A stretch of 64,000 bases of DNA from Cyanidioschyzon merolae (taxonomy: Eukaryota), in the NCBI GenBank assembly GCA_000091205.1, contig AP006495.2, one strand, 5' to 3'. Shown here in pieces: positions 19,575 through 63,073 of this stretch. The notes under the pieces were generated by a model. It searched no databases. It was not told the DNA's origin and worked only from the letters and a program-made list of their open reading frames with translations. The stretch's first letter is position 1; every line of letters begins with the position of its first letter. Position numbers and translations under genes: made by a program.

Positions 19575-21117
19575 CATAGCAGACATACATGGAACGGGCC
19601 CACAGCGCTCAATCGGGCGTACACACGAAATGCGGAGCATCTCGTATTTGTCATGAACAAATGACCCGGTAGGCCTCTTCCGACACAGCGTACTTGCTCT
19701 CGTTCGCACCTCGGGATTTTTGGACACGCCAGTCTCTCTGGACCCCGCAGTTCCACGGTCTCCCGTCGAAGGATGCTCGTGGCAGCGCCCGAGTCCCGAT
19801 CTCACAGCTGCCGGCTGTTGTCGATGCAGTTCATCCACCGGCGAGACTTGCAATCCATGCTTCGCTTGCCAGCTTCGTCTTCTTCGAATACAGCGCCGAT
19901 GCGCTTTGCGCAGCGGTCGCACTCGACTGCTGTTGTCGGGTATCCCACATGTCCAGCGCACACCCGTCACCGAGTGCAGCGCTGTGCGGCGTGAAGGACT
20001 CCTCCAGTGCTCGGTGCACGCCCCTGACGAGTACAGAAGGCGTCGCTCGATGCCGTGCTCCGTTGCCGCGCCCGGTACCGTACACTGTCGTCACGAACTT
20101 GTTCAGGGCGATCCCCTCGGCGAGTACGCTGTCCGCGGCAGACGCAAGCGAAGGCTTCTGCATTACGCAGAGGATCTGTGAAACGCGGTGCTGTCCGTGA
20201 TAGAGCACGGAGCAGACGGAAGCTTCACACTCGAGAAGTCGTCGACATACTCCGAGCCGTTTCCGATCCCTGGTTGCAAAGCGGTGACACAGGCTCCGCT
20301 GGAAGCGAGTGCCGGGAGAGCTGGTATCCGAGTCCGAGACCGAGCACCCATGGACGGGCAGGAGCCGAGCACCCGTGGACGGGCAGGAGCCGAGCACCCA
20401 TGGACGGGCAGGAGCCGAGCACCCATGGACGGGCAGGAGCCGAGCACCCGTGGACGGGCAGGAGCCGAGCACCCGTGGACGGGCAGGAGCCGAGCACCCA
20501 TGGACGGGCAGGAGCCGAGCACCCATGGACGTCCGTGCCCTGTGGGGTACCGTGCTTGCGTCGAACGCCGTCTCAGCGGTGTTAGCAAGGAGCCGGGCGA
20601 TATGTCTCCTCGGCCGAGTTCGACGCTCTGACTTGCGAAGTACGGTGAGCGATCGGCTCGAGCTTGTGAGCAAGTCGTTAACGGACGGCGTCGACGAACG
20701 TTCCGAAAGCGTCCAGGTGCTTGAGGTGGCGCGCCCACTGGGTTGCCTCGGAATAGCAAGATCGAAAACCTGAAGATTGGATACTCGGAGCGGGCTGCAA
20801 GTGAAGATAGAAGAAGAGAGGCGTCTAGCGCGTATGCATACAACGGTAGTATCGATTCGTTTACGATGCCTTGTTCGCGGGTGTCCCGAATCGTCTCGAT
20901 TCTGGTGACGTAACGAGTTGCAGCGGCACATCGTTGAACGTGTCGCTCCGCGAGAAAGAAGAACCACCGACCTAGAATCCTGAGAGTGTATACGAATCCG
21001 TAAGCATTTTATTGGTGCTCCATGAAAGTCAGCGCTTTGCATCTGAACAAGTTCAGAGGGAAATCTAAATGCAGGAACAGGGTGTGCAGTTCTTTTGTAG
21101 ACTTATATCTGACGCGG
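19575..21117. repeat. Segmental duplication, copy 1 (about 1.54 kb, direct orientation)
   Basis: Near-identical to 26608-28175, with a few SNPs and one extra 25-bp unit in copy 2. The coordinate offset is 7033 before the minisatellite and 7058 after it. Divergence points were read directly at both ends. Confidence 0.9.
20338..20530. repeat. 25-bp minisatellite, about 7.7 units (ccgagcaccc[a/g]tggacgggcaggag)
   Basis: Direct reading. Because 25 is not a multiple of 3, all three frames give a 25-aa periodic pseudo-peptide (EHPWTGRSRAPMDGQEPSTHGRAGA), explaining the overlapping ORFs. Confidence 0.9.
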
Positions 21118-21718
21118 GTGTCTGCAACTGCCAACGCAGGCATTTACGTCCGAAGCTGTGGGTCTCAATATGGTTTTCCAGTAGCGATGACTGCCAGGGT
21201 TGGTTTGCGGTGCAAACCAAGGTTCCTGAGCTTAACTTGAATGCTTCTAGCGAGCGCACTGGTTTATTGTTGCTCTCGCGAGAGGCTGGCGCGCCTTGTA
21301 TGAACCTCAAACGCTCTATGTTTCCGACCAACGGCACTTGTCTCAGAACCTGCTGATTACCTCGGCACCGCTTCCCGTACACAAGCCTTCAAAGCACATT
21401 ATTAAAGGATTCATGATAGATGCTTTTCCAGGAAACTGTCGTGCGGTTGTCTACCCGATGTTGGAGCAATAGCTAGTGCCCCCATTGTATGAGCGTGAAG
21501 CGCGCTCAGCAGGTTCCTATGCGTTGCGCGTCACCTTTCCTTGCCTGTATGATAGCGCCGCCCCTACATATGTTCCTACGCTGGGTGCACGGAGTATTCT
21601 ATATGACCGAGCGAGCGTGGAGCCAAAGCGCAATTGGCAATCGAAGATGTTCAGCATAGCGAGTACCCGAAGTCGCCATACAGTGACCTGTCTATAGAAA
21701 ACACAACTTGAAGGACAG

Positions 21719-26607: not shown

Positions 26608-28175
26608 CATATCAGACATACATGGAACGGGCCCACAGCGCTCAATCGGGCGTACACACGAAATGCGGAGCATCTCGTATTTGTCATGAACAAATGACCC
26701 GGTAGGCCTCTTCCGACACAGCGTACTTGCTCTCGTTCGCACCTCGGGATTTTTGGACACGCCAGTCTCTCTGGACCCCGCAGTTCCACGGTCTCCCGTC
26801 GAAGGATGCTCGTGGCAGCGCCCGAGTCCCGATCTCACAGCTGCCGGCTGTTGTCGATGCAGTTCATCCACAGGCGAGACTTGCAATCCATGCTTCGCTT
26901 GCCAGCTTCGTCTTCTTCGAATACAGCGCCGATGCGCTTTGCGCAGCGGTCGCACTCGACTGCTGTTGACGGGTACGCCACATGTCCAGCGCACACCCGT
27001 CACCGAGTGCAGCGCTGTGCGGCGTGAAGGACTCCTCCAGTGCTCGGTGCACGCCCCTGACGAGTACAGAAGGCGTCGCTCGATGCCGTGCTCCGTTGCC
27101 GCGCCCGGTACCGTACACTGTCGTCACGAACTTGTTCAGGGCGATCCCCTCGGCGAGTACGCTGTCCGCGGCAGACGCAAGCGAAGGCTTCTGCATTACG
27201 CAGAGGATCTGTGAAACGCGGTGCTGTCCGTGATAGAGCACGGAGCAGACGGAAGCTTCACACTCGAGAAGTCGTCGACATACTCCGAGCCGTTTCCGAT
27301 CCCTGGTTGCAAAGCGGTGACACAGGCTCCGCTGGAAGCGAGTGCCGGGAGAGCTGGTATCCGAGTCCGAGACCGAGCACCCATGGACGGGCAGGAGCCG
27401 AGCACCCGTGGACGGGCAGGAGCCGAGCACCCGTGGACGGGCAGGAGCCGAGCACCCGTGGACGGGCAGGAGCCGAGCACCCGTGGACGGGCAGGAGCCG
27501 AGCACCCGTGGACGGGCAGGAGCCGAGCACCCATGGACGGGCAGGAGCCGAGCACCCATGGACGGGCAGGAGCCGAGCACCCCTGGACGTCCGTGCCCTG
27601 TGGGGTACCGTGCTTGCGTCGAACGCCGTCTCAGCGGTGTTAGCAAGGAGCCGGGCGATATGTCTCCTCGGCCGAGTTCGACGCTCTGACTTGCGAAGTA
27701 CGGTGAGCGATCGGCTCGAGCTTGTGAGCAAGTCGTTAACGGACGGCGTCGACGAACGTTCCGAAAGCGTCCAGGTGCTTGAGGTGGCGCGCCCACTGGG
27801 TTGCCTCGGAATAGCAAGGTCGAAAACCTGAAGATTGGATACTCGGAGCGGGCTGCAAGTGAAGATAGAAGAAGAGAGGCGTCTAGCGCGTATGCATACA
27901 ACGGTAGTATCGATTCGTTTACGATGCCTTGTTCGCGGGTGTCCCGAATCGTCTCGATTCTGGTGACGTAACGAGTTGCAGCGGCACATCGTTGAACGTG
28001 TCGCTCCGCGAGAAAGAAGAACCACCGACCTAGAATCCTGAGAGTGTATACGAATCCGTAAGCATTTTATTGGTGCTCCATGAAAGTCAGCGCTTTGCAT
28101 CTGAACAAGTTCAGAGGGAAATCTAAATGCAGGAACAGGGTGTGCAGTTCTTTTGTAGACTTATATCTGACGCGG
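26608..28175. repeat. Segmental duplication, copy 2 (about 1.57 kb)
   Basis: See copy 1. Its right end directly abuts the TnpB/Fanzor-like fragment B. Confidence 0.9.
27370..27590. repeat. 25-bp minisatellite, about 8.7 units (one unit more than in copy 1)
   Basis: Direct reading. The A/G variant pattern differs between the arrays (copy 1: a,g,a,a,g,g,a,a; copy 2: a,g,g,g,g,g,a,a). Confidence 0.9.
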
Positions 28176-28760
28176 ATGCAGGACTGTGTGAACACTGAGC
28201 AATACAAAAAAACGTTCAACGGCCATGGAGGGTATACAGACATCCTCCCTCGCAGACGCCGCCCAGCCTTCTTCGACTGGCTCCCCTGCTATCGGCTTCA
28301 GTTTCTCCTTGTACATTTCGTGTTGGAAAAGTTGCCCCACGAAGTTCGCACGTGTCAGCTTCCCCGGTCTCGTCTTCAGCACCACTCAACACCTGATATC
28401 CTTGACGGCGTTGAAGTCTCGGTTCACGAACTCCACGCGTTTTAGTCTCTCGTGGAGCTCATTCAGGCGAGGCTTCTTCGAACTCGCGCCCCCTGCGGCA
28501 TGTGCTGCTCTATCAGCTGTCCGAGGTTTTCCAACGCCGAACCGCTCCGTTGCCTTCTCTCAACATCAGCCTTCGGAAGTGTAAACCCCAGATCAGCCTG
28601 TGTTTTGCTCGTTCGGAACACAGCTATCGGTACCGCGACCAAACGCTGCGAGCTCTCCTTGTACGCGCGCGCCAAAAGAACCAATATTCTCCCTTTTTGG
28701 GGCAAGCAGTGCCCTGACCAGTTTCCCGCTAAAAGCTTTTGACCCTCATCCTCGTTTAAG
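28176..28760 (-). mobile_element. 5'-truncated and internally deleted TnpB/Fanzor-like fragment (copy B)
   Basis: Minus-strand reading gives ...SSQRLVAVPIAVFRTSKTQADLGF...RVEFVNRDFNAVKDIRC* and then VVLKTRPGKLTRANFVGQ...YKEKLKPI (ORFs 28463..28705 and 28161..28385). Confidence 0.55.
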
Positions 28761-29012
28761 GTGCTCAGCTATCTCAAGAAATCGACACTTGTACGCTTCT
28801 TCCTTTCGTACAAACACATACGGTGGCGGGGTGGGGGCCTGTCCGCCGATGCAGACCGCCTTCCACAGCTCGTCGGTATGAGTGTTTTGAACTTTCCTGT
28901 ACTCACGAACAGCTTCAAACTCCGCTCCTCGAAACGTGACTTTCTTCATCGCATCCCGGTACTTATTTAGTGCCGGTTGTTCAGTCGTAACTTGTTTCGA
29001 CGGCTCCGTCAT
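28746..29012 (-). CDS. Small hypothetical protein (88 aa)
   Basis: Clean ORF of lower GC with a plausible start and stop. No motif recognised. Confidence 0.3.
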   Translation of the reverse strand: MTEPSKQVTTEQPALNKYRDAMKKVTFRGAEFEAVREYRKVQNTHTDELWKAVCIGGQAPTPPPYVFVRKEEAYKCRFLEIAEHLKRG

Positions 29013-30027
29013 ACCCGACTATCGGTAGTTTCAAGCTCGCTAGACCTCCAACGGATGCATCTCATTCTGGCGCAGGTTGTCGCCAATACTATTTTTCCAT
29101 GGACAAAACGTTTACGTAGGTCAGTGTTCTCCGATTATGCGCATTTTCCTCTCTTTTTGTGGGTTTTTCAGTGCACGCTGAAGTATCCATCAAAACGCCC
29201 TACCTCCAAGTTGCATCACCCATACTTTTTCTCGGATATTCTGGTCGTTTCACACTTTGTATCGTGTGTGCCTAGTGCCTGCGGAAAGCGACAGCAATGG
29301 CGCCTATAGCGCCGGTGCGGTCGCTGTACGGAGACAATGGCGTTGTCGTAGTACAGAGGGCGTTGGCTCCAGGGTCGCCAATGCGATCTGCCAAATATGG
29401 AGGTGCGTTTATCGAGCGTGCTGTATGGAAAAAAAGGACAGAAACGAAACACGAACTAGCAACGAGATAACAACTTCGTTCCTGCCTCTCCGGTAAACCT
29501 TAAAATGGGGAAAAGGTTTACGTATTGGCGAAAGGTCCCGCGAGCCAGACGACTCTACCGGGCTTGCGCTCCGTGCTTCTCCCAGTAACGGATGGTGTTG
29601 TGAGATCTAAGCAGCTCGTCCGAAACGGAGTTTATTCTGAGACCCGGAGCGAGCATGCTGCATCTGGGCCTCGGCCTGGTTTCGGTAAACTCTTATGAAA
29701 TCGCTTCGCGCTGTCGCGAGCAGAAGGTCTGTCTGCGCAGCTTGCAGGCTCGCAGCATAGTTATGGATCCCGATTCCATATCGTATGAAACACACCTCGA
29801 GCGGACGCCGTCTGTGGTATGGCAATGCCGCCCTGTCTCCATGAGGCATCCGCTCCAGCTGCATAGGCGCAAAGGCGGACCCTCAAAGCAGGCACTCCGC
29901 GGCCGATAGAACGTACAAAAAGACGAGTACATCCCAGAACAGTTGATGGAACTTGGATGCAGGGTGCAGCAGCATGATCGACACTTTCCCGAAAGCCAAT
30001 ATCGGTTCCGCACTCTGGGATCCATGG

Positions 30028-31200
30028 TCAATGGAAACGATTTGTTATTGGAAGAAAATCCGTCCCACGCTTGGGCGCAGCGATGGACATGGTATCCTTC
30101 CTCCCTGGGTCCACGCTGACGACAACGTCGTTCACCTGTACTCCATACATCGCGGGGCCCGCCTCTTTCTTTTCATGCTTCGTCATAGGCGACAGCGAAG
30201 ACAGAATAGGACGAGCCACCCTCAAGCGCCAGCAGTGAACGCACATGGATATTCCGTATCGCGTTCGATCGTTCACGTGAATGCCTTTTTCTTTCTCGTG
30301 TCGAGCCGTTCCGAAACGAGGACATTCTTTCAATACGTTTCCCGCTTTTCGCCTGTGAACTCCGTGCTGCTTACATCGGACCCGGACTTGTCTCCTTCAT
30401 GATGCCGTAAAGGACTCTGGAGTTGATGGTCCCAAAGTGTGACTTGATGTTGGATGACGCAGCGACGTCAAAGCGCTTCTCCAGAAGCGCAACCTTCCGT
30501 TTCACCGAATCTGCATCATTATTTTCAACAATATCCATATTCGTCTTGCGTTCGAGCTCTCGGTTCGAAAACACGAAACAGAGCAGAATAAGGGGATAAC
30601 ATCTTTTTTCATATCCGATGCCTTTTCTGCATGGTTGACCAGCCCCAGAACCGCGCAATGCTCTTGAATAGCTGTATGGATCACAGAATCGTCATTCGTG
30701 ATACTGTGAGACGTATCGTCGTTGACGGAATCAGTTTTGCCTTCATCCCGACGATCGTTCATGATGCCATTGATACTGGCCCATATCTCTTCTTGGGAGA
30801 GAGGCCTGGTTAGAGCGCAAAGCCGGAGCGTATCATGAAGTGTTTGAGGTTCATGGTGAATACGGTTCTTCAGATTCGTGAGGTACTTCGTCGCCCCGTG
30901 TCCGCAAATACGCGAGTCAAGCCTGTATCGAGAACCGCTGGAGCGGTATTCGACGTAATCTTCGTGGAGGCGTGTACTCCCTCATTTCTCCTCAGCGTTT
31001 CCACTGTTCAAACCATAAGGTGGCCGATAAAGGTCGAGCTGACAAAGTCTCCCGGAATATCAACTGTCTGGCTGTGCTTGACGTCGTCCAGCATCTCCTT
31101 CACCAAATGCTGTAGTCATGAAGAAATCTTTTTCATACTCGTGCAGCAGGACGCGAAACGGTTTCTGATAGCCTCCCGCAAATTTTGCATGTAGGAACCC
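30028..31200 (-). pseudogene. Degenerate copy of the N-terminal (REC to RuvC-I) half of the TnpB/Fanzor-like gene (copy F)
   Basis: Minus-strand frames give VKVYLHGLIKGSYMQNLREAIRN (vs [23 protein letters not shown] in copy D). They also give NSVIHTAIQEHCAVLGLVN..., ...NRELERK...KSHFGTINSRVLYGI..., and ...VNDVVVSVDPGRKDTMSIAAPKRG (the RuvC-I-like VDPG). Frameshifts are present. Confidence 0.6.
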
Positions 31201-32532
31201 TTGATAAGCCCATGAAGATAGACTTTCACCACCCTCTCGCCGTATTGTTGTCTTTCGAATTGCTTTTGGTGTCTGGCCTCCTGCCTCAGCTTCTTCGTCG
31301 TCTCCTGTTACTCTGGGTTCGACACTGTTTTCCGTATTTTTACGGCAGCAGGCGACACCAGGTCTCTAGGATCCTCGACTTGAACGAACATACTTTTACA
31401 TTGGATTTTTATCTCTTCAAAATCAACGCACTTCTTTATGCCCATGGATGACGAACTTCCTGGAGGGTCTAGGACTTGACGAAGGAATACATCATGTGCT
31501 CCTGGTGTATTTCGGTTTGCTGAACGCTTCAGCGATTCACCCAGTGGTGCGATCATCATGTCTCACGATAGATAACGTTCCTTCGATGTGCTGAACCATG
31601 GAGAGTACGGAGGAATGAAGCGTAGCTCTATCCCGATAGAATCGGTAACAACTCCAACGCAAGAGAAAGGTGAAATGAAAGATACCCCAATGGAAGGAGC
31701 GCTGCCAGGCTTCAGGGGAAATTCTTCAATGATTCGACGAACTATGTGCTGTTGTATGAGCCTTCTCTATGCGCGAAACTGAGACCTTCAAACGAATCCA
31801 ATGCAGCTAGAACGAATAAGCGCAAGGTTCTCTCCAGTCTCAATTTTACATACAACGGGCACCCTGCTCCGCGAATACCCATATACGCTCCGATCGTTTC
31901 GTCCGAAGTGAGTCTCATCGACTGAAAAAGCAAAATAAAGTCCCTTTGTTTCGTACTGATCGGGACGTTAACGGAACCTGTCATTCTGATTTCGGTGGAA
32001 AATGGCCGTGCACGAGCTAGGATTCTATCTTGCGACTTTATCCCAGCGATTTCAGGATCTCACGAACAAGCTGTTGAGAAATCGAGACGCCCGTGGCGGC
32101 TTCAGTCGCCACCACTGCCTCCTGTAAGATGATAAACGTGTTGTTTTCTTCCATTGACAGCAAGCACGCTTTGAAAATACCGGTTTTTGACGCGGAGCGC
32201 ATCTACTTTCTTTCAGAGTTCTCTAGCCATCTGAGTACTGTGGTATGACCGACCTGAAGGAGGAATGCCGTCCTTCTTGCACTGTACAGTAAAGATATAT
32301 ACCCTAGAGACAATTTTCTACGGTCTATACGGTACATTGTATCATGATTTCGATCTCCTGCTGTACACCGCAGCGAGGATGGAACAAAACTGAGCTGGAA
32401 GACTGAAATTGGCTGTCTGACCTGGTTTGCACTGCATGACGCGGGTCGCGGGATACATTTTTCCTGTGCAACGTTCAGTCAAAACTACTTGAAAATCCAG
32501 CCGAGTTAGCTTGGCTTTGCGGACTGCAGGAG

Positions 32533-38759: not shown

Positions 38760-40083
38760 CTTCGGGTGGACTTTCGCTCTCGAGAAGCGTCATCTTCAGC
38801 GCGACATGTACCGCACTCCGGATACATCGTCAATGAAACAAAACATGTCCCACGCTCGTCTAGGGCAAATGAATATCCACTCGCAGACGCCTGCCAGTCT
38901 TTTTTGGTAGGCCTACTGCTATCGACTTCAGCTTCTAGTTGAATACTTCGAGCATGAGAGGCTGCCCGACAAATTTGGATCGCGTCAGCTCCTTGGTCTC
39001 GTATTCAGTAACCCATCTTTTGGTAGTGATGGCCGCGTTGAAGTCCCAGCGCACGTATTCCATGTATTAATTGCCTCTGGTTGACCTCAGTAGTGCAAGG
39101 ATTCCGAAAACTCGCGCCCCACTGTACCACTACAGACTCGTGGCCGTTGCGTCCAAGAGATACCTTTTCTGGTCTATGTCCTCGCTTGTTCGTCACTCAC
39201 TCTTCTCCGCTCGATTGTCAGCGAGAAGAGGGCTTTTGCAATTATTTGTCGAAGTCGGCAATGACAATACTCCTGGATCCTCGACTTCCATGTCCATACC
39301 TACCCAATGGATTTTCTATTTCTCCATATGAACGCACATCGAAAGCATCTACTGAGATCCGGGATAAATCAATCAATTATGCGTACGTGGGTGCAGAACA
39401 CAATGAAAGGTGAAAGCAGGAATGATGGAGAGTTAATGGCGAACGCATTGTTTGACTACGGGGTACGCAGGGCCAGCAGGATCACCGATACGTTCGCGTC
39501 CGCTGAAGCAGAAGCAGCAGGGTTCGAGCGCGCTGCAAACTACGGGGTGTTCCTGCTGGCCTCTGATCCGACGCGTAAGCGTTTCTCGACCGTATGATGC
39601 CTACAAGAAACTGTTCTTTACATGGATGCTATCTGCCGATAGATGCTGATTTGTATAGATCCACATCACCAACTTGGGCGCTCATTCTATGCAACTCGCT
39701 TCTTTCTTGCGTCCTGTACGCGTTCTGAGGCGATAGATTGCCAATCGCCACCGTTCCGTGCCCAGCGACAAGCGAGTCGAATGATGCCTACAAGCACCAT
39801 AGCACATTCGATATACGACGTCGAAACTGGATGCTTCGCGTGCCCGCGTTCGACACGTATATAGTACAGAGGCTGGCGCGTGCCTCGTGCACGATACCCT
39901 CAACATTACAGGTGCTGAATGTAGTTCGAGCGCATGCTTACGCAGCCTGAAGTGATGCACAAGAACACGCTGTCTCCAGTCGATGCTATCGCAGACTCGA
40001 CACTTGCTTCGGCTGCAGTGCAGGTTCTGCTTGTGCGTCTGTGTGCATGTCCGGTGAGATCTTCTTTGCCGCCTTCTTAGGTT

Positions 40084-41283
40084 TCATTCCAACTTGAACA
40101 GAATCTTTCCCTTTCGATTCGGGGCAAACTGTGCCCGAAAAGCATCCTCATACTGTTCGAGTGTATATTCTTGCTCAACTTGCGGTCGCATATCACCTTT
40201 GCGAATCATTTCAAACGTTTCCTCGAAAATCGTCGGCTTCTGGTTCTTCAACCAAGTTGTAAGCGAGAAACCGCGGACAACGATGCCCTTAAAGATCAGA
40301 TCACTGTTCATGACACACGTCGGTTTGCCGCTCTGCAGCCCGTATGCCATGAAAAGGCCGCCCGGGGAGAGCGCTGCCAGCGCAGCCGAGCCCATCTCGC
40401 CGCCAACAGCGTCAACGACGGCAGCGAGCCCGCGTCCATTCGTTATCGCGTTGAGACGCTCGGCGAGGTTCGGCTCCTCGCCAAAAACGATCACCTCGTC
40501 TGCCCCGAGCTGTTTCAGTTCCGCAACAGATGCTTTCGATCGCACAAAGTTCACCGTGCACAAGCCCCGCTTTTTCGCCAGCTGGATGAACATACGACCG
40601 AGAGTCGAGTTCGCCGCTGTCTGTCCGATCCACGGGTTGCCGTGAACCGGCGCCTCCGCTTCGATCTGCTCCAACATGCCGACCACGGTCAGCGGATTCA
40701 CTATCAATTGAGCGGCCTCTTTATCACCGATATCCTGTGGTACTTTGATACAGAGGTTTTCGTCCACCACGAGGTACTGTTGCCAGCAGCCCGAGCGATC
40801 CGCAAGTGTTGGAATCACACGCGTCCCGACAGGAAGCGAGGTCGCTGGACCTTGCGCCACAACTTCTCCGACACCCTCGAGGCCGCCAACAAACCCAGGA
40901 CGACGTTCGCGCACTGCGGCTACCCCAGGGTACACGCCTTGGACGACAAACACGTCGGCAGGATGGAGGCATGCATACCGCATCTTCACGAGCACCTGAC
41001 CCGGACCAGGCTTCGGGACAGAAGCAGTGGTGTTCAACCTAAGTGCTCCCTTCAGCGGATCGCCAAAACTTACAATTTCCAGAGCTTTCTGCGTTGACGG
41101 TATATGTGTTGCCATAGAGTCTGCAAATCGGTTGCGTCTTCCAGCAACGACACCGCCAGGCCTGTGTCTGGAATCAATTTTGGGGCAGGGAGTGCGCACA
41201 TCAGGCTGGCCGCGTCCACCCGCCACACCTGGACCCGTGCCGCGGTATGCGAATGAATCTGGACTGTGGGAGGCAGCGTGCAT
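40084..41283 (-). CDS. Trans-2-enoyl-CoA reductase (MECR/Etr1-type MDR-family oxidoreductase), probably mitochondrial
   Basis: MRYACLHPADVFVVQGVYPG resembles Etr1 (NPADINQIQGVYP). The MDR-type zinc-ADH fold runs throughout. The true start is more likely the internal Met at about 41115 (MATHIPSTQKALEI...), because the upstream part of the ORF overlaps the Fanzor-like fragment C on the other strand. Confidence 0.7.
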   Translation of the reverse strand: MHAASHSPDSFAYRGTGPGVAGGRGQPDVRTPCPKIDSRHRPGGVVAGRRNRFADSMATHIPSTQKALEIVSFGDPLKGALRLNTTASVPKPGPGQVLVKMRYACLHPADVFVVQGVYPGVAAVRERRPGFVGGLEGVGEVVAQGPATSLPVGTRVIPTLADRSGCWQQYLVVDENLCIKVPQDIGDKEAAQLIVNPLTVVGMLEQIEAEAPVHGNPWIGQTAANSTLGRMFIQLAKKRGLCTVNFVRSKASVAELKQLGADEVIVFGEEPNLAERLNAITNGRGLAAVVDAVGGEMGSAALAALSPGGLFMAYGLQSGKPTCVMNSDLIFKGIVVRGFSLTTWLKNQKPTIFEETFEMIRKGDMRPQVEQEYTLEQYEDAFRAQFAPNRKGKILFKLE

Positions 41284-41925
41284 TCGTCAACTTTTTCAAT
41301 CAGTTGAGCGCCTTGAAGGAGGATCAAAGTCAGAGGCTCGTAGTAGCGTACGGAGCAGGGCGCTGGAAGACCCAAAAAGGGACGAGGCCAGCTCCAACGA
41401 CAAGAATGTATGAGGCGTGCACACGGCGTTTCGTTACGATACCGATAGATGAGTTCCGAATATCCTATACACACCATGAACTGGGATGCACACTTCAGAG
41501 GGTCGAGATGGAAACGTGCCAACGGAGCCCTGAGGATATAAAAAAGCACGGACCGCTGACGGAAGAGCAAATGGAAAGGAGGGCGAAAGTTCGTGCATTG
41601 CTTGCACTAGTGAGTACAACCAATGATAGTAAGAAACGTATGGAGTTCGTGAATCGTGACTTTAATCCTGCTATCAATATAAGGAAATGTGTGGTGCTGG
41701 AGACGAGACCTCCAGAGTAGACAAGAGAGAATTTTACTGGACAACCTCTCAAGGTTGAATCATATGAGAAAAAGCTGGAAGCAGTAGTGGGTGACCCGTC
41801 GAACAAGGCCGCGAGGCGTCTGCACATCAGTTGGTGACTTCTTGTCTAGGGCGCGGTTTCTCGCCACTACTGCACACCGCCGGCGACGTCGTTCGACTGC
41901 GAGAGGCGTTCGGCGGTGTACGAGG
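41150..41925 (+). mobile_element. 5'-truncated TnpB/Fanzor-like fragment (copy C), carrying the RuvC-II-like segment, the zinc-finger region, RuvC-III and the 3' tail
   Basis: ...RQRAFVNFFNQLSALKEDQSQRLVVAYGAGRW...TRMYEACTRRFVTIPIDEFRISYTHHELGCTLQRVEMETCQRSPEDI...RRAKVRALLALVSTT...KRMEFVNRDFNPAINIRKCVVLETRPPE*. The tail is conserved with copy D up to about 41900. Confidence 0.65.
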
Positions 41926-46822: not shown

Positions 46823-47050
46823 TACATAACTGGATAAGATGGACAGGAGCGCCTGGCAAGCGTCGCCGATCATGCCGCATGGCTCTGCACTGCACGGCTC
46901 TTCGGGGTGCATTCAGTGGCGTCTACAGAGAAACTGTACATAACTCATTCAAATGGACAGGACTGCCTAACCAGCGTCGCCGATCATGCCGCAGGGCGCT
47001 CTGCACTGCACGGCTCCTTGAGGCATCTGCAGTGGCGTCCGCATGCGATC
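46823..47050. repeat. Tandem repeat, 2 x 114 bp, immediately upstream of and overlapping the annotated 5' end of the MPP-beta ORF
   Basis: Unit: tacataact..a..atggacaggac/agcgcctggcaagcgtcgccgatcatgccgca.gg.tctgcactgcacggctc.t.g.gg..t.cagtggcgtc. It starts at 46823 and again at 46937. Confidence 0.85.
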
Positions 47051-48733
47051 TGTCCGCCTTGGACACCAGTCGTTGTATATGGAAAGGCCGTGCGTTGGAC
47101 CCTCGCCCGGCTGACACTTGAAAACGCACCGTTCACCATGTCCGAGTGGTTACTCCCTGTTCGAGCGTCATGGATCGGCTTGACACGACGGTGTTTTGCG
47201 TTTCAGCGGCTGGGAAGTGTACGCTATGCACACACTGGCAGTGGGAGCAGTGTGAGCAGCCATTCAACGGCTGCGGCTATGCCGCTGCCGGATCCTCTGC
47301 AGACCAGCTTCCAACCGACAGGTCTGAAAAGACTCGTTAAGCAAGTTTTCGGAGAGAACGCAGCACCGCTACCTCCTGGCTACCGTGTTGAACCGCGCCT
47401 CCTGACCCAAACACCAACCCACGTGACGACACTGACAAACGGGATGCGCGTCGCAACGGAGCGCCTGGACACGCCTACGGTGACGGTAGGACTGTGGCTG
47501 GATACGGGTACTCGATTCGAACCGGCTGCTGTGAACGGCGCAGCGCACTTTTTGGAGCACATCATTTTCAAAGGCACCCAGCGCCGAACGCAACAGCAGT
47601 TGGAGATGGAGGTAGAGGATATGGGCGCGCAACTCAATGCGTACACATCCCGCGAGCAAACCGTGTATTTTGCTCGTTGCTTGAGCGATGTGCTCCCCCA
47701 GTCAGTGGACTTGCTTGCCGATATTATTCAGAACAGCCGTCTGGATGCTGCAGCGGTGGAGCGCGAGAAAGACGTCATCTTGAGAGAGATGGAGGACATC
47801 GAATCGCAGCCAGAAGAAGTCGTATTCGACTATTTGCATGGTACTGCTTTCCAAGGGACACCTCTGTCACGGACGATCCTGGGACCGGTGGAAAATATTC
47901 AGGCAATGCAGCGGGAAGCCTTGCTCGAATACATCCGGCGACATTACCGCCCGCATCGCATGGTGCTGGTCGCTGCCGGTGGGTGTCCCGAACACGAACG
48001 GTTCGTGGAGCTCGCCGAGAAGCACTTTGGCAGCATGCCTCGTGCCGAAGATGAAAGCGTGTCTTCAGAAACACTTGCAGCCGCTGAGCCCGCGTACTTT
48101 ACCGGCTCCGATGTGCGTGTTCGGAATGATGACATGCAGCTGGCGCACTTCGCGCTCGCCTTTGAGACCTGCGGCTGGGCGCATCCAGATGCGCCCGCGC
48201 TCATGGTGATGCAGGCGCTCATGGGTGCCTACGATCGCAACGCAGCCCTGAGCCGCTTCTCGTCGTCGCGCCTGTGCAGGGGACTCCACAATGTTCCGAA
48301 CGCCGTTAGCGCACAGGCCTTCAATACGTCGTATGTAGATACGGGCCTTTTCGGTGTTTATGCTATAGCGCATCCGCCTGATCTGGATGACGTCGTCTAC
48401 GAGATTCAGATGCAGTTAACCGGGATGGCGTACAAGCTCGATGAGTCCGAGGTGGAACGGGCGAAGAGGCAACTCAAAACATCGCTTTTACTCCAGCTGT
48501 CCGATTCAAACGCCGTTGCGGAGGATATTGGCCGTCAGTTGCTGACCTACAACCGTCGTGTGCCGCTGGCTGAAACGTTCGCTCGGATCGATGCGGTAAC
48601 GGCGGAAAGTCTGATTCACATTGCGAACAAGTACCTGTGTGATCGGGAGCTTGCTGTGGCCTCTTTGGGCCCGATCGCTTCGCTGCCGGATCTGCTGTGG
48701 ATGCGACGACGCACGTACTGGTTGCGGTACTAG
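46907..48733 (+). CDS. Mitochondrial processing peptidase beta subunit (M16 metallopeptidase)
   Basis: HFLEHIIFKGT carries the M16 zinc motif HxxEH. The match continues through LTNGMRVATERLDTPTVTVGLWLDTGTRFE...EMEVEDMGAQLNAYTSREQTVYF. The likely true start is the Met at about 47138 (MSEWLLPVRASWIGLTRRCFAF..., presequence-like). Confidence 0.85.
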   Translation: MHSVASTEKLYITHSNGQDCLTSVADHAAGRSALHGSLRHLQWRPHAICPPWTPVVVYGKAVRWTLARLTLENAPFTMSEWLLPVRASWIGLTRRCFAFQRLGSVRYAHTGSGSSVSSHSTAAAMPLPDPLQTSFQPTGLKRLVKQVFGENAAPLPPGYRVEPRLLTQTPTHVTTLTNGMRVATERLDTPTVTVGLWLDTGTRFEPAAVNGAAHFLEHIIFKGTQRRTQQQLEMEVEDMGAQLNAYTSREQTVYFARCLSDVLPQSVDLLADIIQNSRLDAAAVEREKDVILREMEDIESQPEEVVFDYLHGTAFQGTPLSRTILGPVENIQAMQREALLEYIRRHYRPHRMVLVAAGGCPEHERFVELAEKHFGSMPRAEDESVSSETLAAAEPAYFTGSDVRVRNDDMQLAHFALAFETCGWAHPDAPALMVMQALMGAYDRNAALSRFSSSRLCRGLHNVPNAVSAQAFNTSYVDTGLFGVYAIAHPPDLDDVVYEIQMQLTGMAYKLDESEVERAKRQLKTSLLLQLSDSNAVAEDIGRQLLTYNRRVPLAETFARIDAVTAESLIHIANKYLCDRELAVASLGPIASLPDLLWMRRRTYWLRY

Positions 48734-50387
48734 TTTGATTCTTGTGAAAGATGTTGTTACCGTGCGCATACACTGTAAAACAGGTCGCCCGTATTCGTTC
48801 CGCGCTTTTCGTAAAGACTCTGGACACACAACCGTAGCACACGTTCTGCACCGGTCTGTTGGGACGTCGTCACCAGGCGGGGGCCTTGTTTGCGTACGCA
48901 AGGCTTAACTTTAGCAATGGCAATGCATTTCGACGCCCAGGTTGCAGCAGCAGATACGAATGGCGCCCTCGGTAGGTGCCCCGCTTGCGTCACGAGATAA
49001 ACAGAAGCGGTATGCATCATCCGATGCGGGGCCTATGTACCGGTCTCAGGGTCTGTATCGAGGACGATACCTTGAACCACGGAGCGCTTCGTGTTACCAG
49101 CACGCCGTCACGTCTCCAGCGAGCAGTTTGTCGGCTGTGGTGCGGATAGGGGGCGCCTTCGCACCGCTCGGCCCTGGCCTCGTGACGCAAAGCCAGTTCA
49201 GAGCGCTGCTGCACCGATTGCAGTCGATGGTGTGCATGGTAAAAAACAGCCGTTATTGGGCAATCGCCAACAAATATCGCACGTTTTCACAGCACAATTG
49301 TGAAGCTTCCCAATACGCAAGCCGTATACGCCGTCACCGTTACCGCCACGAACAGCTACTCCAGACCGAGCAGCGGGGAAATTGCGGTACGCGAGCACCG
49401 ACGCTACCTGCATGTCGTATTGAAACGCAACAGTGGACTGTATGATTTTGTTTCCGAGCTCTGATCTTTTTCCGAGCCATTCTTAGATGTAAAGCGTCGA
49501 CATTCGAAGCGCAGCGAGATGGCTTACGGGCGCATTCGTAGCTTTCGGGTTCTAGATTGTCTTTTTCGAGTGGCTCTCGGTACGCTTTGGTGCTCGAATT
49601 CGTTGCGGCACCGGAATCTAGATGACTCACGACGCCCCCGAACACGGGTTCTCAAACTAACCGGTATCATTATCAGGTTCCTACGTACCAGCATGCACTC
49701 GTCTCCTTTCCGTGCAGGTCGCATGCTCATATGCCACCTGCTGAATGTTTTCGATCTTTCTGATTTATGGTGTAACTCGTGGGCGCAGCCATTCGCGCCG
49801 TTGGATTGACGACGAAATAAATCTTGGACGTCATCGCTTGGCGAGCTGTTCACGAGCGCATGCCGAAAGCTCCCTGAGCTCGGCACTTCAAATAATGGAT
49901 TTCGTTCGAAAGACCAATCTCCCGATCTTTGCGGTCATCCACGAAACGGCGTTCGACGGCAGTATGCTACATCTCATTGGATTTTCTCCGAAACGCTCGT
50001 GTATATTCTGTTTGCTTGAACGTGGGTTTTGGACTTGAGTCACCGCTGCGACCGCTTCCGGTGGAGCCTGCGTTATGGATAAGCACGGACGGAGCGTAGA
50101 CGGACCAGAATATCTAGAGCGCTTCTTCAACCTGAATTTTCCTTGCGGTGGTTTTCTTTTATCATGGAAATCATCGCGTTTCACAAATCATTCATGGAAT
50201 AGAGCAGCGTGCACTCGCGCGTGCAGCGGAGAGCGTATTCACCAAAGCTGACTTTCCAGAACATAACTGTTCTCGTCCGGTACTGTATTGGACCTGGAAA
50301 CGGAGAAGGACATGTCCCGAGCGAAAAAGCTCGCTTTCACGCGCCTCAGAGCGGCACTCGGAGAGGGAATTGCGATGCATGTATGTG

Positions 50388-50580
50388 AAGACCTGATCAC
50401 GACCGAATGGAACCGCTACGAGAGACGCTCCGAAGCAGTGTGCAAAAAAATGAAAATGGGAAGCGACGCATCGTTCGCAACTTCAGCTTCTGCAAGACAT
50501 GCGAAAACGGAAGCTGTAATCCGCAAAATCGGGACTTGAACGCTGCCATCGACATCGTTCGTTTGCCGGCAACGGGACCA
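50388..50580 (+). pseudogene. Remnant of a second, distinct TnpB/Fanzor-like family (C-terminal zinc finger plus RuvC-III)
   Basis: Frame-3 translation gives ...KRRIVRNFSFCKTCENGSCNPQNRDLNAAIDIVRLPATGPG*. This is the canonical F-x-C-x2-C...(N/D)RDxNAAxNI C-terminus. The upstream frame (50288..) has GIAMHVCEDLITTEW, possibly RuvC-II-like, separated by a frameshift. Confidence 0.5.
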
Positions 50581-51068
50581 GGCTGAAAACAGTGACTGAA
50601 GTATTGAAAGCCAAAGATAGACAGGGGGAAAGAAACAAGTTACAGGAAAAGTCCGCAACGGCTAGTGTTGATGTCAGTGGCAAAGGAGTCAAAGTTGAGC
50701 ATGTTCGCTCGAGTTCGTAGATCCGTTCCATTGTACGCCAATGTGGATGTAGTCCTGGGTGTCGTGCGTGCGTGCGCCGTGGAAACTCGTGCCACGGCAC
50801 TTGCGTGTCAGAAAGCGCGGGAACCCGTGGAACGCTTGCTTTCAGAGAAAATCGAGGTTTGAGGCTTTCATCTCTTCACGCCAAGACAGAGATTCCATAG
50901 GTAATTTTTCATTGCAAGGTACGATCGTTTTCACCACGGACTTTCATAGCCAATCAAGTATTTAGCGCTTTCGCGGTACATTTGGACCACGTTTCCGTAT
51001 TCAACTTTTCGTTGCAGTCCAAATAGTGCCGCGCGGTTTGGCGTTGGAGGCGGCTCGGGTAATGTATC

Positions 51069-52405: not shown

Positions 52406-53327
52406 TCAGCTCGATGATGGGGCAAACTTCGCACGAACCAGCAAGAAACGCCGTTCTAAAGTAGAACGTCGTCGGCGGTGTACAGTAGTAGCGACCGGTG
52501 CGCCTTGGACACCAAGTCGCCTACTGACGTGCAGACGCTTCCTAGGCTTTTTCGACCGGCCGCCTACTACTGCTTCCAATTGTGTCTCATATAGTAAAAC
52601 CTTAAGAGGTTGTCCAACAAAATTCTCGCGTGTCATCTCTGGAGGTCTCGTCTCCAACACCGCACATCTCCTTATATTGATGGCGGTAATAAAATCTCGG
52701 TTCACAAAATCCATCCGTTTCGTGCCGTTGGGAGTTGTACTTACTAATGCAAGCAGTCCACGAACTTTCGCTCTCCTTTCCATTTGCTCTTCCGTCAGCT
52801 GTCTATACTTTGCTATATCCTCAGGGCTCCTCTGGCACTTTTCCATCTCGACTCTCTGAAGTGTTAACCCCTGTTCATGGTGTGTGTGCTATGTTCGAAA
52901 CTCAACTACAGGTATCGTAACGAAACGCCTTGCACACTCCTTGTACATTCTTGTCGTTGGAGCTGGTGTAGTGCCTTTCTTGGGCACCCATCGTCCTGCT
53001 CCGTACGCTACGACGAGCCTCTGACTTTCCTCCTCCTTCAGGGCGCTCAACTCATTCAAAAAATTCGCGAACGCCCGCTGCCTCCCACCGTATAGATTCA
53101 TTCGCAAACGAGCCCACGGGGGTTGGTATACTCCTCCCATAGCGCATCCCGGTGCGCCATATGCGAACTTCCATGAATTTCCGGACAGCTCCAAAGTCCG
53201 CTCCTCGGCTCGTCACCTTACTCAAAGCTTCCGGGCGATCCTTCATTCCTGCATTCCGTTTCTCGATTTTCTTCCTCGCATTCATGATTCCCGATTCTCG
53301 ATAGTATCTCGCTCTCGAGATCCTCAA
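52406..53327 (-). pseudogene. Frameshifted C-terminal half of the Fanzor/TnpB-like protein (RuvC-II-like, zinc-finger, RuvC-III and C-terminal tail)
   Basis: Three different minus-strand frames (ORFs 53052..53327, 52889..53194, 52406..52846) are needed to read it. Together they are homologous to copy C. Confidence 0.65.
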
Positions 53328-54703
53328 AAAAGACGCATGTCTTTCTGACGCAAGTTACCATCAGCACCATCTTCCGTACGCTTCGGTGCTACGATGGTTA
53401 TGATATTCGTATTCCCAGGGTCCGCGCCAACGACAAGGTCGTTATCCTGCACTTTCTGCGCGGCAGGATCCTCCTCCTTCTCATCTTTATGCATCGCCGC
53501 GCCAACGACAAAGTCGTTAGCTTGCACCTCCTGCGTCGCAGCATCCTCCTCTTTGTTTTCTTCATGCTTCGCCGCGCCAACGACAAGGTCGTTATCCTGC
53601 GCTTTCTGTGTCGCGGGACCCGCCTCTTTGTTTTCTTCATGCTTCGTGACGGGCGCAGCCGATGGAGGGACTGGACGATCTTTCTTCAACCTCCGATAGT
53701 GCACACACATGGCTACTCCATCGGGTTCGATCAACCCAGTGAATACCTTTTGTTTGCTCACTTTCAGACGTTTGAAATCGAAGATGCTCATCCAGTACGT
53801 CTCCCGGTTTCCGCCGGTGAAGTCCTCCCTGCTAACATCGAACTCCGGACAGATATCCCTCGTGATGCCGTAAAGGATTCTGGAGTTGATAGTCACAAAA
53901 TGTGACTTGATCTTGCACATTGGAACCACGTTGAAGTGCTTCCCCATTAGGACAGCCTTCCGTCTCTCCCACTCTTCCTTTGACTCTTCACTCAGCTTCA
54001 TCTCCGCTTTGCGTTCGAGCTCTCGGTCCAGAAACACAAAATAGCGCAGAACGAGGCGATCGTATCTTTCCCTATCTTTTTTCAACGCTGATATCTTGTC
54101 TGTTGGATTCGCCAGCCCCAGTACCGTACGATGCTCTTCGATAACCGCACGGATGACGGAATTCTCATTCGTGCTCTGGTTTGACTCCTTGTTGTCAACG
54201 AATTCGACCTCATTTCCATAGTTTCGATCGTTCGTGATGCCATTGATAATCGCCCATATTCCTTTGCGAGACAGGCCCCGGTAGAGTGCAAACACGGCGC
54301 GTATCATGAAACGTTCGAGGTTCATTCTGAAATGGTTCTTCAGATTCGTCAGGTACTTCATCGCCCCATATGTGTAGATATCCGCGTCACCCCTGTATTG
54401 GGTACCCTCGAAGAGGAATTCCGCGAAGTTTTCGTGGAGGACTTTCACCCGCTCATTTTCCCTCCGCGCTTCCTCTGTACCAAGCATCAGCTGACGAATA
54501 AAGGTCTTATCGAAAAACTCGTCCGGAATCTCGACCGTTTCCATGTTCGTCACGTAGAGGTACATCTCCTTCACCAAATGCATCAGTCCTGAAGATGCCT
54601 TTATCCTACTCATGGGGTACAACTCGAGAAGGTTTTTGATGGCCTCTCGCAACTTTTCCTTGTACGGATCCTTGATATATTTAAGAACACAGACTTTCAC
54701 CAC
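53324..54703 (-). CDS. Intact 459-aa ORF encoding the N-terminal (REC-like to RuvC-I) portion of the Fanzor/TnpB-like protein
   Basis: Uninterrupted ORF of lower GC. The C-terminal [15 protein letters not shown] matches the TnpB/Fanzor RuvC-I (hGhDxG) pattern. It contains a 3 x 25-aa tandem repeat just upstream of that motif. Confidence 0.65.
53422..53650. repeat. Tandem repeat, 3 x 75 bp, inside the Fanzor-like ORF (encodes [25 protein letters not shown] x 3)
   Basis: The ccgcgccaacgacaa(g/a)gtcgtta.. units start at 53422, 53497 and 53572. Confidence 0.85.
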
Positions 54704-55199
54704 TATCTCGTTGTACAGTTGTCTTTCTTGCCGCCTTCGACGTAGAACCTCCCCCTTTTTGAATCTTCATCACTTCCTGTTCCTCTTTGCTCCGCCTTGT
54801 TTATCTTTTTTTCCGGCAGCGGGTGATATCGGCCCTCCGGGATCCTCCACTTCCATTTCCATGACTTTCCTTTTAATTTTTTGAAAACGAACGCTCTTTG
54901 AACGCTTCTGTTATATACTTCGAAAAAACACTTGAATATACTCAATTGAGGGTCGGAATAGGATGGAACAGAAAACCTATACTTTGCTACGACCTCAACG
55001 CGAATACAACTTTTACAGTAGAATAGCACGCCAATGATCAGGATCACTGTTCCCCTCAAGAGCGACCAGAGCGTCGTGTCTCGTGCCCGCCGGATCTGCC
55101 AGGTGCGCGTGCACGCGCAGCGGCTGACCTGCGCCCCGCCGCCGATCAGGAGATTGCTTCTGGATATGTCTATCTCAAAGCGTGATAACCTGTTGCTGA

Positions 55200-58544: not shown

Positions 58545-59060
58545 AGGTCGTCATCTCAGGCTATAAACAAGTGCGTTCATTTTCGAAAAATCTAAGGGAC
58601 GAGCTGGAATATACACCCTAGGATGTTGAGTTGGAGCGAGGCCAGCGGAGCGTTTCGTCGACGGATCAGCACGAAGAGCTGACAGAGCACCCAATGGCAC
58701 AGCGTGCACGAGTTCGTGGTCTCCTATCATTGGTGAGATCAACCAGCGGCAACAAACGCATGGAGTCCATGAACCGAGACCTCAACGCTGGTATCAATAT
58801 CAGGAGATGCTTGTGCTGAATGCGAGGCACGCAGCGCTGCGGCAAGCTAACTTTGTTGGGCAGCCTCACAGCGTCGGAGTGTATATGGAGAAACTGAAAC
58901 CGATACCAGAACCCTGTAAGAAAAGGCTGAGAGACGTCTGCGGGTGGATATTCATTTACACGATATTGTGGCGAAACGGGTTTGCTGCACTGACGTAACG
59001 TTGTTCGCTTCGGCATTCGCGCTGTTATCTGCTCCCGAGCAAACCGCGAAAAGCAGGCAA
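58545..59060 (+). mobile_element. 5'-truncated TnpB/Fanzor-like fragment (copy E)
   Basis: ...VELERGQRSVSSTDQHEELTEHPMAQRARVRGLLSLVRSTSGNKRMESMNRDLNAGINIRRCLC* is followed by the conserved tail (LVLNARHAALRQANFVGQPHSVGVYMEKLKPIPEP). Confidence 0.6.
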
Positions 59061-61615: not shown

Positions 61616-63073
61616 TTGGGCAGAGCAAAAAGCCTTCATCGCATAGAGATTACTTTTTACGCGTTCAGAGAGTCGCGTTCGTGTGCTTTCCCGCTAAGCA
61701 TGGCATCCATCACGACGGTGGCTGCTGCTGCTGTGGGCGCCGCACTGCCGTCGAACAACCACGAACAGGACGATGAGGATCGGGCGGTAACCATGTTCCG
61801 CATTAAAAAACTGCTCAAAGGCTTGGAGGCAGCACGTGGTAACGGCACGTCCATGATTTCGTTACTGATTCCACCGGGCGACCAAGTTGCAAAGGTTGGA
61901 AAACTTCTCGCAGACGAAGCGGGAACAGCCTCCAACATCAAGTCCCGTGTCAACCGACTTTCCGTGTTGTCTGCTATCACATCTACGCAACAGCGCCTTA
62001 AGCTCTACAACAAAGTTCCACCGAACGGTCTAGCAATCTACTGTGGGACTGTTCTAACGGACAAGGGCGAGAAACAAGTGACCATCGACTTCGAGCCACA
62101 CAAGCCGATCAACACGTCGTTGTATTATTGCGACTCGCGGTTCCACGTAGAACCACTGATGAATCTGCTTGAAGATGATGAAAAGTTCGGGTTCATCATT
62201 ATCGACGGGAATGGGGCGCTTTTCGCTGTACTTTCGGGGAACACGCGCGAGATTCTGCATCGTTTCACGGTCGATTTGCCGAAGAAGCATGGTCGAGGTG
62301 GTCAGTCCGCGCTCCGTTTTGCGCGTCTCCGCATGGAAAAACGGCATAACTATCTACGACGTGTTGGCGAAGATGCGGTGCGGCTCTTTATTCCCGATGG
62401 CGACAAAGTTAATGTGAGCGGCATCGTGCTGGCTGGTTCCGCGGACTTTAAGAATGAGCTCGCACGCAGCGACCTGTTCGACCCCCGTCTACAGGCCAAA
62501 GTGATCGCGGTCGTAGATATCAGCTATGGCGGTGAGGTTGGTCTCAATCAAGCGATTGAACTGGCTGCTGACAGTCTGTCAAACGTGAAATATGTACGTG
62601 AGAAGCGGCTTTTGAAGGAATTTTATGACCAGATCGCACTGGATACTGGAAAATATTGCTACGGGGTCGACGATACCATGAAGGCGCTGGAAATGGGCGC
62701 AGTGGAGAAATTAATTGTCTGGGAGAACCTCGAGTATGAGCGTGTTGTCTTGATGAACCCGCAGTCGGGCGAAGAGACTGTGCGGATCGTTCAGAAGGAG
62801 AAGCTGGATCAGTTGGCGAGTGATACGGCCAAGGACGGCGGACCAGACATGGAAATCAAAGAGTCAGAGTCCCTGGTGGACTGGCTCGCGCAAAACTACA
62901 AGCGATTTGGAGCACATCTGGACTTGGTGACAGATCGAACCGCAGAGGGCAGTCAGTTCGTGAAAGGTTTTGGTGGCATTGGAGGTATTCTGCGATACCA
63001 AATCGATATCGCATCACTAGACCAGGAAGAAGATGATGAATCTGATTTGGATGAAGATGACTGGGCGCTGTAA
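61616..63073 (+). CDS. eRF1: Eukaryotic peptide chain release factor subunit 1
   Basis: [15 protein letters not shown] (NIKS) and [22 protein letters not shown] (GGQ) are present. The match to human ETF1 runs along the whole length. The true start is probably an internal Met at about 61697 (MASITTV...). Confidence 0.95.

Follow-up and report, generated by a model that had tools for sequence, protein, structure and literature searches.

A relic repeat family with a Fanzor1-like C-terminus beside CMe-1A in Cyanidioschyzon merolae

Fanzor1 proteins are eukaryotic homologues of TnpB and act as transposon-carried, RNA-guided DNA endonucleases. The motif common to TnpB and Fanzor proteins was described as D-X(125,275)-[TS][TS]-X-X-C4 zinc finger-X(5,50)-RD (Bao & Jurka 2013, PMC3627910). 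Fanzors have Gly or Pro in place of the canonical RuvC-II Glu, the catalytic triad being completed by an alternative Glu farther downstream (Jiang et al. 2023, PMC10530073). A search expression for Fanzors was given as DPG-x(120,160)-E-x6-CxxC-x(12,18)-CxxC-x(4,8)-D (Yoon et al. 2023, PMC10711439). For Cyanidioschyzon merolae, CMe-1 is the sole Fanzor family given, with approximately 150 copies and a 3169-bp consensus (Bao & Jurka 2013, PMC3627910).

We analyzed a window of the C. merolae genome, meaning the whole stretch of 64 kb. It represents an intron-poor eukaryotic genome of ~55% G+C with long host ORFs (Table 1). An 88-bp tandem duplication at 18430-18602 (2 copies, 76% identity) overlaps the 3' end of ORF 18514-19275(-). 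The main repeat family of the window is CMe-1A, the protein of which is the published CMe-1 Fanzor1. This protein has 54 database relatives, all except two from JGI metagenomes. The CMe-1A consensus matched seven places in the window by blastn (word size 9, E up to 1e-3). These matches fit a host that is Cyanidioschyzon or a close relative. The Fanzor1 frame of the best-preserved copy, 52449-55110(-), is continuous with six in-frame stops, one of which is a Tyr-to-stop change relative to copy 41245-41893, and the copy contains an 80-bp tandem duplication (53497-53576). The old, near full-length copy is interrupted by matches to the first 680 bp of CMe-1A at 29199-29373 (+) and 29388-30048 (-). 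This 5' part equals a separate repeat, TE-N2_CMe (Bao & Jurka, PMC3627910).

A different element lies between the MPP-beta-like gene, which ends at 48733, and a gene starting near 51069. We consider it probable (roughly 0.85) that this candidate is what remains of an extinct Fanzor1-type gene, namely its last 100-150 codons, inside a dead repeat element of ~1.4 kb. An earlier note, made from the sequence alone, had placed a TnpB/Fanzor-like remnant at 50388-50580, and both the peptide and the coordinates were found to be real. ORF 50407-50586 (+) encodes 59 residues, MEPLRETLRSSVQKNENGKRRIVRNFSFCKTCENGSCNPQNRDLNAAIDIVRLPATGPG, followed by a stop, and its C-terminal end is FSFCKTCENGSCNPQNRDLNAAIDIVRLPATGPG. 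The adjacent frame, ORF 50288-50539 (+), contains GIAMHVCEDLITTEW. The peptide KRRIV...GPG occupies 50461-50586 including the stop, with codon starts of 1 mod 3; it was correctly reported, but its "frame 3" is frame 1 by the usual convention, a difference of labelling only.

The pseudogene is read in the frame of ORF 50288-50539 up to an A7 run, where a slip leads into the frame of ORF 50407-50586. In the aligned stretch, copy A of the same family (see below) keeps one frame throughout. One frame of the candidate is nearly open over ~49745-50445, with 3 stops in ~234 codons. The RuvC-III motif NRDLNAAIDI aligned with nRDvnAAxNm of Fanzor1 (HMM, hhalign) and with FVNRDFNAAINI of CMe-1. Based on 300 simulations of first-order-Markov 64-kb windows in six frames, the patterns "RD.NAA..I" and "C..C x3-12 RD.NAA" are each expected 0.003 times per 64-kb window, and each was observed once. 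A relaxed RD motif occurred 5 times in the window, compared with 0.02 expected.

Table 1. Positions of the candidate, its relatives, CMe-1A matches and host genes in the 64-kb window.
Feature	Position	Strand	Remarks
Whole relic element bearing the candidate	~49350-50750	+	Extrapolated, inexact; colinear nucleotide homology to copy A
Fanzor1-like C-terminal pseudogene	50140-50586	+	Pre-Ealt segment, zinc ribbon, RuvC-III, stop
Glu of VCEDLITTE, corresponding to the Fanzor alternative RuvC-II Glu (Ealt)	50387-50389	+	Six residues before first (mutated) CxxC
First CxxC, destroyed	50408-50419	+	TGG AAC CGC TAC (W N R Y); copy A has TGC GAC CGC TGC (C D R C)
A7 run	50444-50450	+	Frame slip between ...SEAVCKK and NENGKRRIV..., from comparison of frames
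Second CxxC, intact	50491-50502	+	TGC AAG ACA TGC (C K T C), read from sequence
RuvC-III motif NRDLNAAIDI	50527-50556	+	Catalytic Asp 50533-50535, predicted by alignment
Copy A	19575-21120	-	1546 bp, sharp ends; 25-nt internal tandem repeat, 7.7 units; degenerate C-terminus ...ECDRC...DRDSGAATSI
Copy B	26608-28178	-	1571 bp, sharp ends; 25-nt internal tandem repeat, 8.7 units; 97.8% identity to copy A
Copy D, truncated	14804-15206	-	5' part of element only; 66% identity to 49464-49868
CMe-1A copy, best preserved	52449-55110	-	85% identity to consensus
CMe-1A copy	41245-41893	+	88% identity to consensus
CMe-1A copy, old, near full-length	28252-31381	-	65-77% identity to consensus; nested insertion 29199-30048
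CMe-1A match	10305-10811	+	blastn of consensus
CMe-1A match	58668-58893	+	blastn of consensus
CMe-1A match	38883-39119	-	blastn of consensus
CMe-1-type remnant, still older	15625-16110	-	Protein level
MPP-beta-like gene	46907-48733		Host ORF
eRF1 gene	61616-63073		Host ORF

Comparison of the candidate region with the window by blastn and tblastn identified a repeat of ~1.4-1.55 kb with three more copies, A, B and D, nucleotide relatives that the earlier note had overlooked. The ends of copy A, set by comparison with copy B, were the basis for the extent of the candidate element. Positions 116-468 of copy A match copy D, which in turn matches the candidate element, and positions 919-1354 match 50160-50561. 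Over ~50040-50575, the candidate is colinear with copies A and B at an estimated similarity of ~60-65% (three-way DNA alignment). A scan of metagenome contigs, which we take to be of hot-spring origin, detected the orthologous locus in related strains (L002, 99.5% identity; L003, 97.2%), additional A/B-type copies (L004-L006) and a third, "C-type" subtype (L007-L010). A fifth, "E-type" subtype (L011) was reached via the protein database. The family comprises at least five diverged subtypes across the window and the metagenome contigs. The earlier note had named a lack of further genomic copies, together with a lack of upstream RuvC-I or RuvC-II similarity, as the outcome that would make the motif a chance one; the test for further copies came out in favour of the note, since they exist in the window and on the contigs.

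Stops or frameshifts were present in every sampled copy. The least interrupted, a C-type copy (L008), has a single frame with six stops. Word-indexed protein searches with two alignments of the repaired copies brought up nothing beyond fragments of these pseudogenes (P0001, P0057, P0058, P0059, P0060), and no intact relative was detected in the protein or contig collections searched. No full-length nuclease ORF was found, as no copy is intact and the element does not exceed 1.55 kb.

Copies A and B have unrelated flanks and differ by one 25-nt repeat unit. Together with their near-identity and sharp ends, this points to a recent duplication, or to mobilisation in trans of an element unable to encode its own nuclease. 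We detected no convincing terminal inverted repeats at the ends of these two copies. The 403-codon ORF 19831-21042, which runs through the internal repeat of copy A, is spurious. Three of five candidate-family elements directly follow the 3' end of a CMe-1-type Fanzor element. The 5' end of copy B lies ~10-20 bp beyond the point where the 3' end of the old CMe-1A copy is expected (junction 28179-28260), copy D follows the older CMe-1-type remnant (interval 15206-15625), and the C-type copy in L008 adjoins a deleted CMe-1A derivative (L008 3448-3530). Since the junctions fall at different positions inside the candidate-family elements, this arrangement may stem from nested insertion among abundant repeats and not from targeting.

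The candidate Glu aligned with the DE of "vDEfrTS" in Fanzor1 (HMM, hhalign). The significance that the earlier note had attached to this upstream Glu was borne out, since its position fits the Fanzor alternative RuvC-II Glu in an E-x6-CxxC arrangement. The same spacing was observed in the candidate (E-DLITTE-[W]NR[Y]), the E-type copy (E-DPTTAS-CHC) and the C-type copy (E-YLTAVR-CQC). At the [TS][TS] position, TT is found in the candidate as well as in copy A and the E-type copy. The candidate keeps two of the four zinc ligands, its first Cys pair having changed to Trp and Tyr, and copy A is missing half of the second pair. In the columns of the second CxxC, copy A has W-M-N-C (TGG ATG AAC TGC), as does copy B (W-M-N-C), the C-type copy has C-I-stop-C, and the E-type copy has C-M-I-C. 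The CxxC differences between the candidate and copy A are single-base changes. Copies A, B and C keep the RD dipeptide, for which the E-type copy has RN. Comparison of the copies restores a probable ancestral signature of Glu-x6-CxxC ... CxxC ... (N/D)RDxxAAxxI. The two-CxxC C4 zinc finger following [TS][TS] is thus recovered for the family, but not in the candidate itself.

In the candidate, nine residues separate the second CxxC from RD (CKTC-ENGSCNPQN-RD; RD at 50530-50535), within the 5-50 range of the TnpB/Fanzor motif. The spacings CxxC-x24-CxxC and CxxC-x10-D are outside those of the Fanzor search expression (x12-18 and x4-8; Yoon et al. 2023, PMC10711439). Chlamydomonas CRe-1 likewise has 24 residues between its CxxC pairs. 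Neither HMM nor hhalign comparison aligned a RuvC-I (DPG) segment with the DPG region of CMe-1-clade proteins. A resemblance ~155 residues upstream, PIFVNIDKTG in the C-type copy versus PIFAVIHETA in the candidate, was noted by eye and is without statistical support. The earlier label "textbook" overstates the condition of the C-terminus, which keeps two of four ligands, needs a frameshift in the A7 run and has no detectable RuvC-I.

Homology to Fanzor1 was assessed with a small C-terminal reference alignment of 10 sequences (CRe-1 to CRe-5, CVu-1, CMe-1, P0047, P0055, PUl-1). The CRe-1 to CRe-5, CVu-1 and CMe-1 proteins were taken from the supplementary protein file of Bao & Jurka (2013, PMC3627910), P0047 and P0055 are database relatives of CMe-1, and the oomycete PUl-1 C-terminus, used in later runs only, was hand-translated from the supplementary DNA file of Bao & Jurka. 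A raw six-frame scan of the window with the resulting HMM, without frame repair, recovered all CMe-1A copies and matched 50416-50565 (6.7 bits), 19733-20038 and 26766-27071. The frame-repaired copies scored 10.6-17.6 bits in near-full-length colinear alignments. With 3000 shuffles per copy, the best scores were 5.7-8.9 bits, and 0 of 3000 attained the scores of the repaired copies. By hhalign, a three-copy alignment matched the 10 Fanzor1 C-termini at 96.4% probability (E 1e-9, 116 columns) with the first frame reconstruction, and at 94.9% (E 4.7e-8, 93 columns) with a conservative reconstruction using the fewest frame changes.

The frame-repaired reconstructions, on which this statistical support rests, were assembled partly by eye. 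The first of them (YHGNHRVSQ...EQRALARAA...VRYCIGPGNG) was rejected as probably out of frame upstream of ~50290, judging from the C-type copy in L008, and the upstream "AYG" and "KQRAF" correspondences are unreliable for the candidate copy. The Glu-to-RD core of ~60-90 residues is robust to the choice of frame repair; correspondences farther upstream are not. Because both reconstructions gave ~95% hhalign probability, the Fanzor1 conclusion survives.

Library searches gave no relevant match. Scans of the ORF and the repaired translations against Pfam-A and NCBIfam yielded no TnpB-type match and no OrfB_Zn_ribbon, a PHROGs scan of the same sequences yielded nothing relevant, and an HMM search of PDB sequences yielded nothing for the candidate family. 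Since the PDB-sequence search was also blank for the undoubted Fanzor1 CMe-1, these library negatives carry little weight. An HMM built from CMe-1 only, applied to raw frames, matched the RD motif alone (6-7 bits). The sole phmmer match of the 59-residue ORF among 1.84 billion representatives, P0056, was rejected as spurious. P0056 is an acidic repeat protein of 718 residues that aligned at five places via KKTNGNRRAQKQFAACLVCG, an effect of low complexity or repetition and not of homology.

The relation of the candidate family to CMe-1A was examined at both the nucleotide and the profile level. As the earlier note had stated, nucleotide similarity is lacking. The blastn searches of the candidate region and the main family, conducted both ways within the window, gave no cross-match, and the CMe-1A consensus did not match 49350-50750, 19575-21120, 26608-28178 or 14804-15206. 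An alignment of P0002-P0055, together with 52622-53125(-) and 41241-41732(+) of the window, indicated that the CMe-1 clade is without the two CxxC pairs between TS and RD. It instead carries a longer insert, TSYTHHELGC...C...(K/R)VRGLL. The missing pairs conflict with the original description of the Fanzor motif, which speaks of a "strictly conserved C4". The absence of nucleotide similarity, combined with a C4 zinc ribbon that the CMe-1 clade lacks, supports a second Fanzor1 family, distinct from CMe-1A.

Alternatively, the candidate could be a very old, strongly diverged subfamily of the red-algal Fanzor1 stock of CMe-1A, split within this genome. We regard this single-lineage origin as possible, though on balance unlikely. 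Both families are Fanzor1-type, and hhalign linked the candidate family to the CMe-1 clade at 85% probability (E 6.5e-6), so the description of the remnant as "unrelated" to the main family was not upheld. Furthermore, the candidate-family HMM scored CMe-1, P0047 and P0055 at 8.9-13.4 bits, above the green-algal and oomycete Fanzor1s, and NRDxNAAI(N/D)I is nearly identical in both families. Against a single lineage are the absence of nucleotide similarity and the lack of CxxC between TS and RD throughout the CMe-1 clade, down to 34% identity (P0055). In addition, the alignment to the CMe-1 clade is shorter (57-99 columns) than that to the mixed Fanzor1 set (93-116 columns), and the sequences are too decayed for phylogeny. 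In the reverse direction, the mixed and green-algal profiles come out ahead. As the two directions disagree, the candidate family cannot be placed nearer to the green-algal Fanzor1s or to CMe-1. Of the two independent lineages proposed in the earlier note, the evidence supports two distinct families, and their independent origin is no more than a possibility.

Family knowledge suggests that the ancestral protein would have had the Fanzor arrangement, with an inert canonical RuvC-II position and the alternative catalytic Glu. A C4 zinc ribbon would have followed six residues on, and then the RuvC-III Asp in NRDxNAAxxI. All subtypes share a short architecture, in which a 5' region without recognisable coding similarity precedes the Fanzor C-terminus. 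Based on this common architecture, the ancestor that was amplified would have been either an already internally deleted, non-autonomous element, which is more likely, or a very compact gene. The element size of only 1.4-1.55 kb and the nearly open frame over ~49745-50445 are the grounds for the compact version, in which the family descends from a TnpB-sized (~400 residues) Fanzor1-like nuclease with a full C4 ribbon, native to thermoacidophilic Cyanidiales; we consider this improbable. If it were true, an intact and possibly thermostable copy could persist in an unsampled Cyanidiales genome.

Derivation from a prokaryotic TnpB (IS200/IS605 or IS607), or alternatively from a Fanzor2, whether through horizontal transfer or contamination, appears very unlikely. 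The earlier note had likened the C-terminus to the TnpB consensus F.C..CG...D.NAA.NI. However, the element is flanked by eukaryotic genes, the same locus occurs in related strains, and its base composition resembles that of the surroundings. The NCBIfam and Pfam scans also lacked a TnpB-type match, and the alternative-Glu arrangement is that of Fanzors. By hhalign, a small Fanzor2 set (ACa-1, ACa-2) gave a probability of 0.3-0.4%. The earlier designation "TnpB/Fanzor-like" was therefore right about the superfamily, but the 95-96% obtained with Fanzor1, compared with 0.3-0.4% for Fanzor2, suggests that the candidate is specifically Fanzor1-like and not Fanzor2-like.

The candidate has lost the first Cys pair and has acquired the A7 frameshift and upstream stops in the ancestral frame. 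Mismatches between the copies are distributed evenly over the three codon positions (p 0.15-0.9), and this lack of codon periodicity indicates that the copies diverged as non-coding DNA. Differences from L003 amount to 10 per kb in the element, compared with 9.4-9.7 in the spacers and 2.7-4.3 in the flanking genes (small counts). Rfam had no match anywhere in the 64-kb window. Broken copies, the absence of codon periodicity and an orthologous locus that behaves like spacer together indicate that the sequence does nothing today. From these sequence features we class the candidate as a probable relic of a Fanzor1 gene, not a functional member.

A domesticated fragment under selection, serving either as a short zinc-binding peptide encoded by the 59-codon ORF or in regulation or guide-RNA production, would be compatible with the openness of ORF 50407-50586, its conservation at 99% or more in L002 and the recurrence of the same ORFs in public read assemblies. 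Such a role seems highly improbable, because the element diverges at the rate of spacer DNA, two of four zinc ligands are lost, Rfam matches and codon periodicity between copies are lacking, and the identical ORFs elsewhere are this locus again, in the same strain or a sister strain. A chance origin of the motif in non-coding DNA, for which one could cite the blank Pfam result and the absence of any protein match to the 59-residue ORF save the spurious repeat protein, is almost certainly wrong given an expectation of 0.003 per window, profile-profile E-values of 5e-8 to 1e-9, 0 of 3000 shuffles at the observed HMM score and, decisively, conservation of position and order over at least five diverged copies. 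On the combined evidence of motif rarity, multiple copies and the Fanzor1 hhalign match, the identification of a genuine remnant of a TnpB-superfamily nuclease was confirmed.

The preferred reading is that of a second Fanzor1 family beside CMe-1A, of which the relic, now probably functionless, would be the record. The relic is a new but ordinary pseudogene of a known nuclease type, with no evidence of present function. With it, a genome for which Bao & Jurka (2013, PMC3627910) list CMe-1 alone would gain a second Fanzor1 family, now extinct. This would imply that Fanzor1 families with and without a zinc ribbon existed side by side in a very small red-algal genome poor in introns. The value of the relic lies in repeat annotation and in the history of red-algal Fanzors, without changing the understanding of the nuclease mechanism. 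An intact copy, if discovered, would be a compact Fanzor from an acidic hot-spring organism and could be of interest for genome editing.

Among the known systems, CMe-1/CMe-1A shares with the candidate family the genome, the window, the Fanzor1 type and a very similar NRDxNAAIxI motif. It differs in being much longer and in having near-intact copies, whereas decay is far more advanced in the candidate family. Prokaryotic TnpB (IS200/IS605, IS607) and Fanzor2 belong to the same superfamily and follow the same D...[TS][TS]xx-C4-...RD logic. In canonical TnpB, however, the RuvC-II Glu lies in "vviEdL", while the candidate family shows the Fanzor-type alternative Glu. The described Fanzor1 proteins (CRe-1 to CRe-5, Chlorella CVu-1 and Pythium PUl-1; PMC3627910) have their C-terminal motifs in the same order as the candidate family and at roughly the same spacing. 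The shared features are a stretch ending in "v.vDE..TS", Ealt six residues before CxxC, the second CxxC and nRDxNAAxNi, as well as carriage by a multi-copy mobile element. Unlike these Fanzor1s, the candidate family consists entirely of pseudogenes, recognisable over the last ~100-150 residues only and without a DPG segment. Its second CxxC-to-Asp spacing is 10 residues, and its element of 1.4-1.55 kb is too short for a typical Fanzor1 protein of 600-900 residues.
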